DNA of 64,000 nucleotides, from the NCBI RefSeq assembly GCF_003991155.1, contig NZ_CP031294.1. The stretch is one strand, 5' to 3'. The notes beneath the pieces were generated by a model. The model made no database searches and was not told where the DNA came from. It saw nothing but the letters and a program-made list of their open reading frames with translations. Both the position numbers and the translations under genes were made by a program. Positions 20,164-21,072 of this stretch are shown in pieces (position 1 is the stretch's first letter; each line of letters opens with the position of its first letter). This stretch comes from Escherichia coli. Lineage in GTDB: Bacteria > Pseudomonadota > Gammaproteobacteria > Enterobacterales > Enterobacteriaceae.

Positions 20164-21072
20164 ATGATTGGTAAGTTGTCTGATTCTTTGATTGAAAATA
20201 AATACAACGAATTTAGAGAAGAAATATCTTTACTTTTTGACTATTTAAATCAGATAAATGATACAACAAAGAAAAATATAAAACGTCTTCTTAAAGAAGT
20301 GGAGTATGCACAGAATCCAGATACTATTATTAATATTAATGAAACTATTAAGATTAAGTGTGGCACAACGTTAGCTCGCCATTTATGTTCAAACCCATAT
20401 ACAGGTTCAACATTAGAGATAGGTAACAGCGCCATTGATTTAGAAGAAAAGATAAGATTGTGTAATACTTTGAAAAATAAACAATATCAGTGGGTTATTA
20501 CTGAAGCCTATGAGTTACTGGAAGACTATATTGAGGCAATATATGTCTATACTGTATGTGTTCGAAATGATTTATGGTCCTCAAGTGATTTTGGTAAGGT
20601 TGAAGATGATGAAATTGGGAAAAGGGAAGTTTATTACAGATTATTAAAAGCAAAAAGTAACCCATCGAAAAAAATAACTAAAATTTTCAGAAATAAAATA
20701 CCTGGCTTCAAAGAGATAGAAACAAACAACAAGATTGGCAAAAACTATCGCTTTAACATCAAGCTAATTGAACTACTAAGACATACAATAGTACACAATA
20801 GTGGACGATTCAATGATACAGAAAAATTTATAAATAAGGTTTTAGATGAATCTGAAATAAACGGTAAGAAAAGAGTTATTGGAGAAAGAGCTGTTAGAAG
20901 TTACATTACTAAAGTGCAAGAAGATGATATTGTGATGCTCTTAGAAAGACCATCTGAAATTTTAGGTTCTTTTGGTGGGTATTTTAACAGAGCAAAATTT
21001 TTACTAAGTGATATTTTAGAATACTCACTAATCATTAAAGAAGAACTAAAATCATATCTAGGCAATCATTAA
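20164..21072 (+). CDS. AT-rich accessory gene: hypothetical protein with Rx4H (HEPN-like) motif
   Basis: 302 aa on the plus strand; very low GC; motif LLRHTIVHNSG fits the HEPN Rx4-6H signature; own promoter-side AT-rich leader and downstream terminator. Confidence 0.45.
   Translation: MIGKLSDSLIENKYNEFREEISLLFDYLNQINDTTKKNIKRLLKEVEYAQNPDTIININETIKIKCGTTLARHLCSNPYTGSTLEIGNSAIDLEEKIRLCNTLKNKQYQWVITEAYELLEDYIEAIYVYTVCVRNDLWSSSDFGKVEDDEIGKREVYYRLLKAKSNPSKKITKIFRNKIPGFKEIETNNKIGKNYRFNIKLIELLRHTIVHNSGRFNDTEKFINKVLDESEINGKKRVIGERAVRSYITKVQEDDIVMLLERPSEILGSFGGYFNRAKFLLSDILEYSLIIKEELKSYLGNH

Follow-up and report, generated by a model that had tools for sequence, protein, structure and literature searches.

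A candidate solo HEPN ribonuclease on a swappable single-gene cassette of an SSU5-like Escherichia coli phage-plasmid

The open reading frame and its slot

The window analysed here (the whole stretch of E. coli DNA, 64 000 nucleotides of contig NZ_CP031294.1) comes from an SSU5-like E. coli phage-plasmid. It is collinear, coordinate for coordinate, with ~110 kb plasmids (NZ_OW849379.1 and NZ_CP172196.1) and gives a 98.9% match to 'Escherichia phage CMS-2020a'. The open reading frame (ORF) of interest, whose product is labelled WP_001755525.1, 'hypothetical protein', in RefSeq, codes for 302 amino acids on the plus strand and, as described in the first-pass annotation, is opposed to its minus-strand neighbours; these are grxA and a tRNA cluster. 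Its strong AT-richness, also pointed out there, is borne out by a GC content of 0.293 (versus 0.46 for the whole window), a value within the lowest ~1% of 909-bp windows. The features of the region are as follows:

19745-19990, minus strand: grxA, neighbour of the ORF and on the opposite strand to it
19991-21072, plus strand: acquired single-gene cassette, made of a 173-bp AT-rich upstream spacer and the ORF
19991-20163, no strand assigned: intergenic spacer, cassette-specific, 173 bp
20062-20034, minus strand: promoter-like TTATCA-17-TATAGT facing grxA, from a promoter scan
20097-20125, plus strand: weak promoter candidate TTGAAG-17-TACAGT, agreeing with the consensus at 8 of 12 positions, read from the sequence
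20154-20158, plus strand: Shine-Dalgarno sequence AGAGG, 5 nt 5' of the ATG, read from the sequence
20164-21072, plus strand: ORF with ATG start, 302 amino acids, HEPN-superfamily-like product
21077-21096, no strand assigned: G+C-rich hairpin AAAGGGGC-CGAA-GCCCCTTT, backbone terminator 3' of the minus-strand tRNA cluster, outside the cassette
21251-21808, minus strand: cluster of four tRNA genes (Ser-UGA, Thr-UGU, Tyr-GUA and Asn-GUU), convergent with the ORF

The limits of the cassette were defined by BLAST comparison with two relatives that lack the gene, phage Cyrano (L001) and plasmid pU_B2_3 (L015). Identity of ~98% extends up to position 19990, which is the first base of the minus-strand grxA start codon, and returns at 21073, the first base past the stop codon of the ORF. 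The segment in between has a GC content of 0.287, versus 0.45-0.47 for its flanks. In Cyrano and pU_B2_3 the slot is filled by a ~390-bp segment, on which a Gp49-family gene is encoded on the minus strand. A second E. coli allele, found at the same position, displays 56-59% amino acid identity; between E. coli alleles the cassette is 52-78% identical and the flanks 95-100%. The version found in Klebsiella/Citrobacter (38-43% identity) is likewise a plus-strand gene and immediately precedes the tRNA genes.

A joined-flank survey of 364 E. coli genomes with such elements revealed at least three states of the slot: (i) the Gp49 segment, (ii) the HEPN-like gene, in ~28 genomes and (iii) a plus-strand gene for an unrelated 420-amino acid protein with a hydrophobic N-terminus, the start of which is at the same offset from grxA. 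About 9 out of 10 related E. coli phage-plasmids are without the HEPN-like gene. The slot therefore behaves as a hotspot where single-gene cassettes are swapped, which makes the initial reading of the gene as a moron cassette a reasonable one, with the caveat that its own plus-strand promoter is a weak candidate; the sharp boundaries, foreign composition, diverged alleles and unrelated alternative occupant speak for it. The hotspots of P2 and P4 prophages and satellites (PMC9122126) likewise consist of a fixed slot, between conserved backbone genes, that receives alternative cassettes of foreign composition, each with one gene or a small number of them. The present slot differs from them in that it belongs to an SSU5-like phage-plasmid, where it extends from grxA to the tRNA cluster, and in that none of its three occupants (Gp49, the HEPN-like gene and the 420-amino acid protein) is a validated defence gene.

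The gene had also been credited with an intrinsic terminator of its own at 21078-21106, a claim that did not withstand comparison with the relatives. The hairpin (21077-21096) has an exact copy in both Cyrano and pU_B2_3, which are gene-less; since it is kept in these relatives and homology resumes from 21073, it must be regarded as a backbone element and not as part of the cassette. Moreover, the scan gave it a terminator score for the minus strand alone, where its tail, TTTTTTGTT, is the stronger T-tail, the plus-strand tail being an interrupted GGATTTTG. At best, the hairpin is possibly bidirectional and common to the convergent ORF. On the 5' side, the promoter scan returned minus-strand sites only and no plus-strand promoter. 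The spacing of the TTGAAG-17-TACAGT candidate is kept in a second allele (L016), and the spacer probably holds divergent promoters.

Conserved residues and predicted fold

The peptide LLRHTIVHNSG had been singled out as fitting the HEPN ribonuclease signature. Two features of the coding sequence are of importance here:

20512-20514, plus strand: codon of Glu117, an invariant residue in helix 93-133 and the candidate acidic residue of HEPN helix 2
20779-20796, plus strand: R206-H207-T-I-V-H211, the Rx4H motif and predicted catalytic site

Taken alone, the Rx4H motif is weak evidence and does not go beyond chance: shuffled versions of the same protein contain Rx4H in 20% of cases and Rx4-6H in 48%. 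Its conservation does go beyond chance. An exhaustive profile search (E ≤ 1e-3) led to a family of 443 cluster representatives at 50% identity, nearly always 280-330 amino acids long. Among 155 collected family proteins, 146 possess RHxx[VIL]H, and the three in which Rx4H is fully missing are all truncated fragments. In a 136-sequence alignment with a mean column identity of 24%, only the three columns E117, R206 and H211 show no variation. Conservation of at least 90% was found for N105, Q107, W110, E120, Y127, W138, E186, N189, H207 (96%), V210 (99%) and G214 (97%). Two signature blocks emerge, KNKQYQWLL-EAYE-FED in helix 93-133 and LIE-LRH-IVH--G in helix 195-212. The motif noticed at first pass thus stands, R206 and H211 being invariant in homologues and located at the end of a core helix; variation of the R/H residues, named beforehand as an observation that would speak against it, was not seen in any of the 136 sequences. 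A zincin-like HxxxH motif was also considered and ruled out, because the Glu after the first His is missing and the position is variable.

Structure prediction, which had been proposed as a check for a HEPN-like fold, was carried out with AlphaFold2 and a deep alignment (mean pLDDT 94, pTM 0.90). The model comprises four long helices (residues 2-50, 93-133, 195-212 and 276-300). Residues 69-91 form a beta-hairpin; the second and third long helices are separated by small helices (140-187), and an alpha/beta insert (~213-275) separates the third from the fourth. R206-H211 closes helix 195-212 on its C-terminal side, with G214 and a loop coming next. HEPN domains are defined (Anantharaman et al. 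2013, PMC3710099) by several features: (i) a four-helix core, frequently with an insert between helices 2 and 3, (ii) an Rx4-6H motif closing helix 3 and running into the helix 4 loop, (iii) a polar N, D or H directly after the Arg and (iv) in many cases, an acidic residue further upstream, in helix 2 and close to the motif, typically within Ex3[KR]. A further trait of the superfamily is metal-independent RNase activity, with a composite active site that arises through dimerisation. The model has the insert separating helices 2 and 3, the Rx4-6H motif (R206/H211) ends helix 3 (195-212) and the polar residue is H207 in 96% of family members. E117, in the preceding long helix (93-133), is a candidate for the acidic residue; its local context, E-x-[FL]-E-D, differs from Ex3[KR].

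A Foldseek search against AFDB50 gave, as top matches, full-length alignments to uncharacterised proteins (TM 0.8-0.92), followed by LA2681-like HEPN proteins (TM 0.89) and RiboL-PSP-HEPN proteins (best TM 0.87, many at 0.6-0.75). Proteins named 'HEPN domain-containing', Apea-like HEPN and Cthe_2314-like HEPN were also retrieved. Matches to proteins named as members of HEPN families are full-length, with E-values from 1e-15 to 1e-6. Across the fold searches, HEPN toxins were returned as well, and small HEPN proteins were aligned over ~90% of their own length. The model thus displays the HEPN-like fold that had been anticipated.

Sequence profiles were far less informative. No Pfam family was matched at E ≤ 0.001 by any of the 136 members, and none of the HEPN models in Pfam, PADLOC and NCBIfam was significant for any family member. 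PADLOC-DB v2.0.0 (including Abi families and PDC candidates) gave no match at E ≤ 1, searches of NCBIfam and of PDB sequences with the single protein and with profiles gave no significant match, and the only match in PHROGs is a family of unknown function, phrog_35492. The sole recurrent weak Pfam signal is DUF3644 (best E = 0.013), which for the query (E = 0.28) covers residues 182-223 and hence the motif; DUF3644 is classed as a HEPN family in the survey (PMC3710099).

Could the protein be something else altogether, an unrelated helical protein giving generic bundle matches, with the conserved R, H and E engaged in other chemistry? We consider this improbable. The position of the motif, the polar residue after the Arg and the insert between helices 2 and 3 jointly fit the HEPN definition, together with an invariant upstream Glu that is a candidate for the acidic residue. 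The Foldseek matches extend over the full length, small HEPN proteins are aligned over most of theirs, and the one Pfam signal falls on a HEPN family and over the motif itself. Judging from the model and the alignment, the protein very probably represents a divergent, unannotated family within the HEPN superfamily. In the predicted structure its nearest kin is the RiboL-PSP/LA2681 group, a group close to AbiD/AbiF according to the survey.

An H-x3-H spacing on a helix is able to coordinate metals. We count this ability in favour of a different use of the same HEPN-like fold, in which the protein is not a nuclease: H207, H211 and E117 (HxxxH plus Glu) would bind a metal or ligand, or the protein would serve as a regulator that binds nucleotides or RNA, or would counteract defence. 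Such a role also has precedents, since some HEPN domains are non-catalytic binding modules, for example in nucleotidyltransferase fusions, but non-catalytic HEPN domains typically lose Rx4-6H (PMC3710099), whereas here the Arg and His211 are invariant. In addition, His207 is conserved at only 96%, below these two residues, and the defence-island context reported in the next section points to an effector. A non-nuclease function is, on balance, rather unlikely.

Partner genes and neighbourhoods across the family

The presence of an antitoxin-like ORF or structured RNA upstream of the gene, which it had been suggested to look for, was assessed in the spacer (19991-20163) and none was found. The spacer contains a 21-codon ORF starting with TTG and a 33-codon antisense ORF, neither of which is conserved in other alleles, and no small ORF in it is conserved between E. 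coli and Klebsiella alleles. The folding of its RNA does not stand out (z = -1.77 and -1.43) and Rfam returned nothing. As a side observation, a 17-19-codon upstream ORF is common to two E. coli alleles and missing in Klebsiella; it lies partly upstream of the candidate transcription start.

Partner genes were sought more widely in 25 loci, by clustering all ORFs located at most 7 kb from the gene; the loci belong to Gamma- and Betaproteobacteria, Campylobacterota, Treponema, Bacteroidales, Nitrospira and Thermodesulfobacteriota. Among these 25 loci no family of neighbours was recurrent, so the gene behaves as a standalone module. Other family members are cargo of mobile elements; one, for example, is found inside an ICE transfer operon (TraU/TraC/TraG), on the opposite strand.

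These results bear on the possibility that the protein serves as toxin in a toxin-antitoxin or addiction module, which would stabilise the phage-plasmid by post-segregational killing; the hidden antitoxin might be a small RNA, the product of a tiny ORF or that of a gene located elsewhere on the element. We regard it as unlikely. Besides the content of the spacer and the lack of a recurring neighbour in such diverse taxa, no MNT gene is adjacent, about 9 out of 10 related E. coli phage-plasmids manage without the gene, and some members are chromosomal singletons among housekeeping genes (for example between tam and uxaB in E. coli chromosomes).

The association with defence genes was evaluated in a small sample of 12 loci, in which near ORFs (at most 4.5 kb from the gene) were picked on the basis of size and adjacency only. 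Strong PADLOC matches (E < 1e-40) were obtained for 8 of the 20 near ORFs, in 7 of the 12 loci, versus none of 10 control ORFs of similar size at 7-10 kb (Fisher one-sided P = 0.0215). In these 12 loci, which come from unrelated genomes, the immediate neighbourhood is therefore enriched in defence genes. The systems identified by PADLOC, by locus, are:

L029: type IIG restriction-modification enzyme, abutting the gene
L023: Avs4, abutting the gene
L031: PD-T7-5, near the gene
L036: PD-Lambda-1, near the gene
L020: PDC-S15, near the gene
L034: PDC-S13 / type I S-like and GajB, near the gene
L022: type II methyltransferase, near the gene

Weaker, pAgo-associated PADLOC matches also occur near family members. 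These defence-island neighbourhoods in unrelated bacteria indirectly suggest that the protein may act as a toxin or Abi effector. Against a defence role, some family members are surrounded by housekeeping genes and have no defence neighbours.

The tRNA genes next to the ORF are a different matter. The adjacency noted in the first-pass annotation is correct for the ORF itself but does not extend to the family: no tRNA gene was found in the fetched flanks of 20 out of 22 family loci outside SSU5-like elements, which rules out tRNA linkage as a family trait and assigns it to the phage-plasmid slot. An RNase serving the phage-plasmid's own life cycle, by processing tRNA precursors or by shutting off host mRNA during lytic growth, could be invoked because the four-tRNA cluster adjoins the gene and because some HEPN enzymes, Las1 and Swt1 being mentioned, process RNA (PMC3710099). 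Such a role appears very unlikely: the same tRNA cluster and backbone exist in the gene-less Cyrano and pU_B2_3, 20 of the 22 family loci elsewhere have no tRNA gene in the fetched flanks, and the gene is convergent to the tRNA genes and foreign in base composition. A further point against it is the near absence of the gene from phages. The viral structure library BFVD contains no meaningful structural relative and the gene is found in only 2 of 50 697 phage records, which argues for cargo of bacteria or mobile elements and not for a phage core function.

A possible mode of action and related systems

Taken together, we favour, with moderate confidence, a solo HEPN ribonuclease borne by a swappable phage-plasmid cassette and acting most likely as a single-protein abortive-infection or exclusion effector. 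According to this scheme, the protein would be made in carriers of the phage-plasmid and held as an inactive oligomer. A trigger, derived from a phage or from a plasmid, could be sensed by the parts that lie outside the core (the N-terminal helix, the hairpin 69-91 and the insert 213-275), and the same parts may, by analogy, mediate oligomerisation. Activation would bring together two Rx4H sites (R206/H211, aided by H207 and E117). The putative outcome is metal-independent cleavage of RNA (tRNA, mRNA or rRNA), which would stop translation and thereby block the competing phage.

The scheme has a close parallel in HepS ('HEPN Solo'; PDB 9OIJ/9OIK), encoded by the Gifsy-1 prophage of Salmonella, a single HEPN protein without partners: its resting form is an inactive tetramer, which the tail-tip protein J opens, and the opened protein cleaves tRNA-Thr, Ile and Ser (PMC13043305). 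Like HepS, the protein described here is a single HEPN-domain protein with a canonical Rx4H, has no partner or inhibitor gene nearby and comes from a temperate-phage accessory slot. HepS combines infection sensing and abortive infection in one protein, and by analogy the model proposed above would do likewise. No relationship to HepS was detected; the HepS family is delimited by similarity to 9OIJ and a standalone size below 250 amino acids, and the present protein falls outside these limits.

The tRNA specificity of HepS (PMC13043305) raises the possibility that our candidate is an anticodon nuclease and that the divergent tRNA genes downstream confer self-immunity, through tRNAs that resist cleavage or are in surplus, so that the phage-plasmid would complete its own lytic cycle while competitors starve of tRNA. 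The tRNA-Ser region of the element, which has only 2 chromosomal megablast places in 5426 E. coli genomes, is in keeping with this idea. Against it, the tRNA cluster is also present in relatives without the gene, and family members elsewhere have no adjacent tRNA genes. We deem it highly improbable; if true, the 'nuclease plus spare tRNAs' arrangement would be one not described for solo HEPN proteins.

Returning to the abortive-infection or exclusion effector, a second precedent is HEC-08, for which the His of Rx4-6H is needed for defence and the HEPN domain was also matched to 5YEP by its authors (bioRxiv 10.1101/2024.01.29.577857). As precedents, HepS and HEC-08 lend support by analogy to a solo HEPN protein acting in defence. 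RAZR is a zinc-finger RNase assembling on phage ring proteins (PMC13017515). HEC-08 and RAZR possess C-terminal zinc-finger domains, which the present protein lacks, and Ishtar has an N-terminal HEPN domain followed by a C-terminal beta-rich domain (bioRxiv 10.64898/2026.07.06.735840). In contrast to these DUF3644-/DUF4145-type systems, the HEPN core here spans the whole protein and is interrupted by internal inserts; relative to DUF3644-type systems in particular, the DUF3644 matches are subthreshold (best E = 0.013). In comparison with HEPN/MNT (HepT/MntA) and RnlA/RnlB, no MNT or conserved partner is adjacent in the 25 loci, and HepT-type toxins are about half as large as the present protein.

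Among named families, its nearest structural neighbours are the RiboL-PSP-HEPN and LA2681-like HEPN proteins, to which the matches are full-length and which are of similar size (260-330 amino acids). Both families conserve Rx4-6H, and 'Ribo L-PSP-HEPN' is described as distantly related to AbiD/AbiF (PMC3710099). They differ from the present family in that none of its 136 members matches their Pfam models at E ≤ 0.07, and in that there is neither an L-PSP endoRNase fusion nor a ParB or TPR operon partner here. The RiboL-PSP-HEPN and LA2681-like families are themselves uncharacterised.

Solo HEPN defence proteins in accessory slots of temperate phages are already established, and the gene is plausibly another example of them rather than the basis of a new principle. 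If the prediction holds, the 443 clusters would constitute a family of solo HEPN defence proteins, previously unnamed and of fairly wide occurrence, with members in Proteobacteria, Campylobacterota, Bacteroidota, Spirochaetota and Nitrospirota and missed by current defence-annotation tools (PADLOC v2, Pfam and NCBIfam). The other occupants of the slot between grxA and tRNA-Ser are candidates for new defence or exclusion functions, in particular the 420-amino acid protein. The carriers, SSU5-like phage-plasmids, occur commonly in clinical E. coli and Klebsiella, and resistance genes are among their cargo; because of this carriage the gene could, on the same proviso, affect phage susceptibility and hence phage therapy. 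In one relative, ISEcp1-blaCTX-M-55 is located beside the same tRNA cluster.

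Occupants and surroundings of the grxA-tRNA-Ser slot

The slot between grxA and the tRNA-Ser gene (window 19991-21072) is filled in many E. coli SSU5-like plasmids by an unrelated plus-strand gene coding for a 420-amino acid protein, located in two relatives as follows:

L018:3228-4490 and L019:3228-4490, plus strand, 420-aa protein gene (WP_021512311/WP_001718056)

This protein belongs to PHROG family phrog_18168 and has a hydrophobic N-terminus resembling two transmembrane helices. No match was found in Pfam and no meaningful one in PADLOC; the protein may be a further exclusion or defence candidate. 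In one of these relatives, the closely related NZ_AP039430.1 (L019), an ISEcp1-blaCTX-M-55 unit is inserted just past the tRNA array (L019:6014-8810), and therefore resistance cargo is also accepted around the slot.

Between the integrase gene and grxA, the window carries two genes:

18621-19031, minus strand, YafO-family toxin gene
19041-19649, minus strand, 202-aa hypothetical gene, upstream of the YafO-family gene

Neither gene occurs in pEC332_01 or p108_MLI108-3, and in both of these plasmids the integrase gene directly adjoins grxA; the 18621-19649 segment looks like a second variable slot beside the first. The minus-strand tRNA array (window 21251-21808) differs among close relatives:

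Ser-Thr-Tyr-Asn: the window, pEC332_01
Ser-Thr-Asn: phage Cyrano and plasmids pU_B2_3, pECAZ155_2 and p108_MLI108-3
Ser-Asn: the Klebsiella element

When the tRNA-Ser region was compared with E. coli chromosomes by megablast, nearly no match was obtained (2 sites among the chromosomes of 5,426 genomes), and the tRNAs of the element are therefore not copies of host genes.

Upstream spacers of the plus-strand cassettes

Alignment of the upstream spacers (A3) revealed a short inverted-repeat-like element, TAAGTAtGTAGtaACTTA (window ~20059-20079), which was found in all the plus-strand cassettes compared (only four sequences), including the Klebsiella allele and the unrelated 420-aa cassette. It overlaps a minus-strand promoter-like site facing grxA (TTATCA-17-TATAGT, 20062..20034), and may be a promoter or operator common to the cassettes. 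The same spacer contains a short upstream ORF:

20102-20155, plus strand, 17-codon ORF with a GTG start, MITTIDYSKDCLEMYIL

It terminates within the Shine-Dalgarno sequence of the main ORF. A similar counterpart (MEKIDYIKDCL...) exists in the 59% identity allele (L016) and none was found in the Klebsiella allele; the ORF probably arises incidentally from conservation of the surrounding DNA.

Members of the HEPN-like family elsewhere

In E. coli and Klebsiella, genes of the HEPN-like family recur in split, frameshifted or truncated form (proteins P0005, P0006, P0157/P0158 and P0161/P0162; search matches H85 and H92). They include fragments of 172 and 173 amino acids, a 156+128-aa pair and a 196+121-aa pair, and some tblastn matches fall into two to three pieces. 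Such recurrence is consistent with the gene being costly at times and becoming inactivated.

At two family loci, the HEPN-like gene is adjoined by small genes that come in pairs, with about 100-112 aa for one member and 124-137 aa for the other:

L024:2456-3132, one pair
L032:9124-9849 and 14095-14809, two copies

The pairs, which are homologous between these two unrelated loci, are unannotated and look like toxin-antitoxin pairs.

Other AT-rich patches in the window

Two further AT-rich patches were noted:

31504-33207, minus strand, second strongly AT-rich island (GC <0.33), 567-aa protein with P-loop GDWGVGKTH
8453-9043, plus strand, third AT-rich patch, 196-aa ORF

Since the 567-aa protein matches the PADLOC candidate defence family PDC-S49 (E=4.9e-22), the element appears to harbour at least two acquired genes of defence type. 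The 196-aa ORF, for which PADLOC and NCBIfam gave no match, has one predicted hydrophobic helix and adjoins a minus-strand dnaE-like gene.
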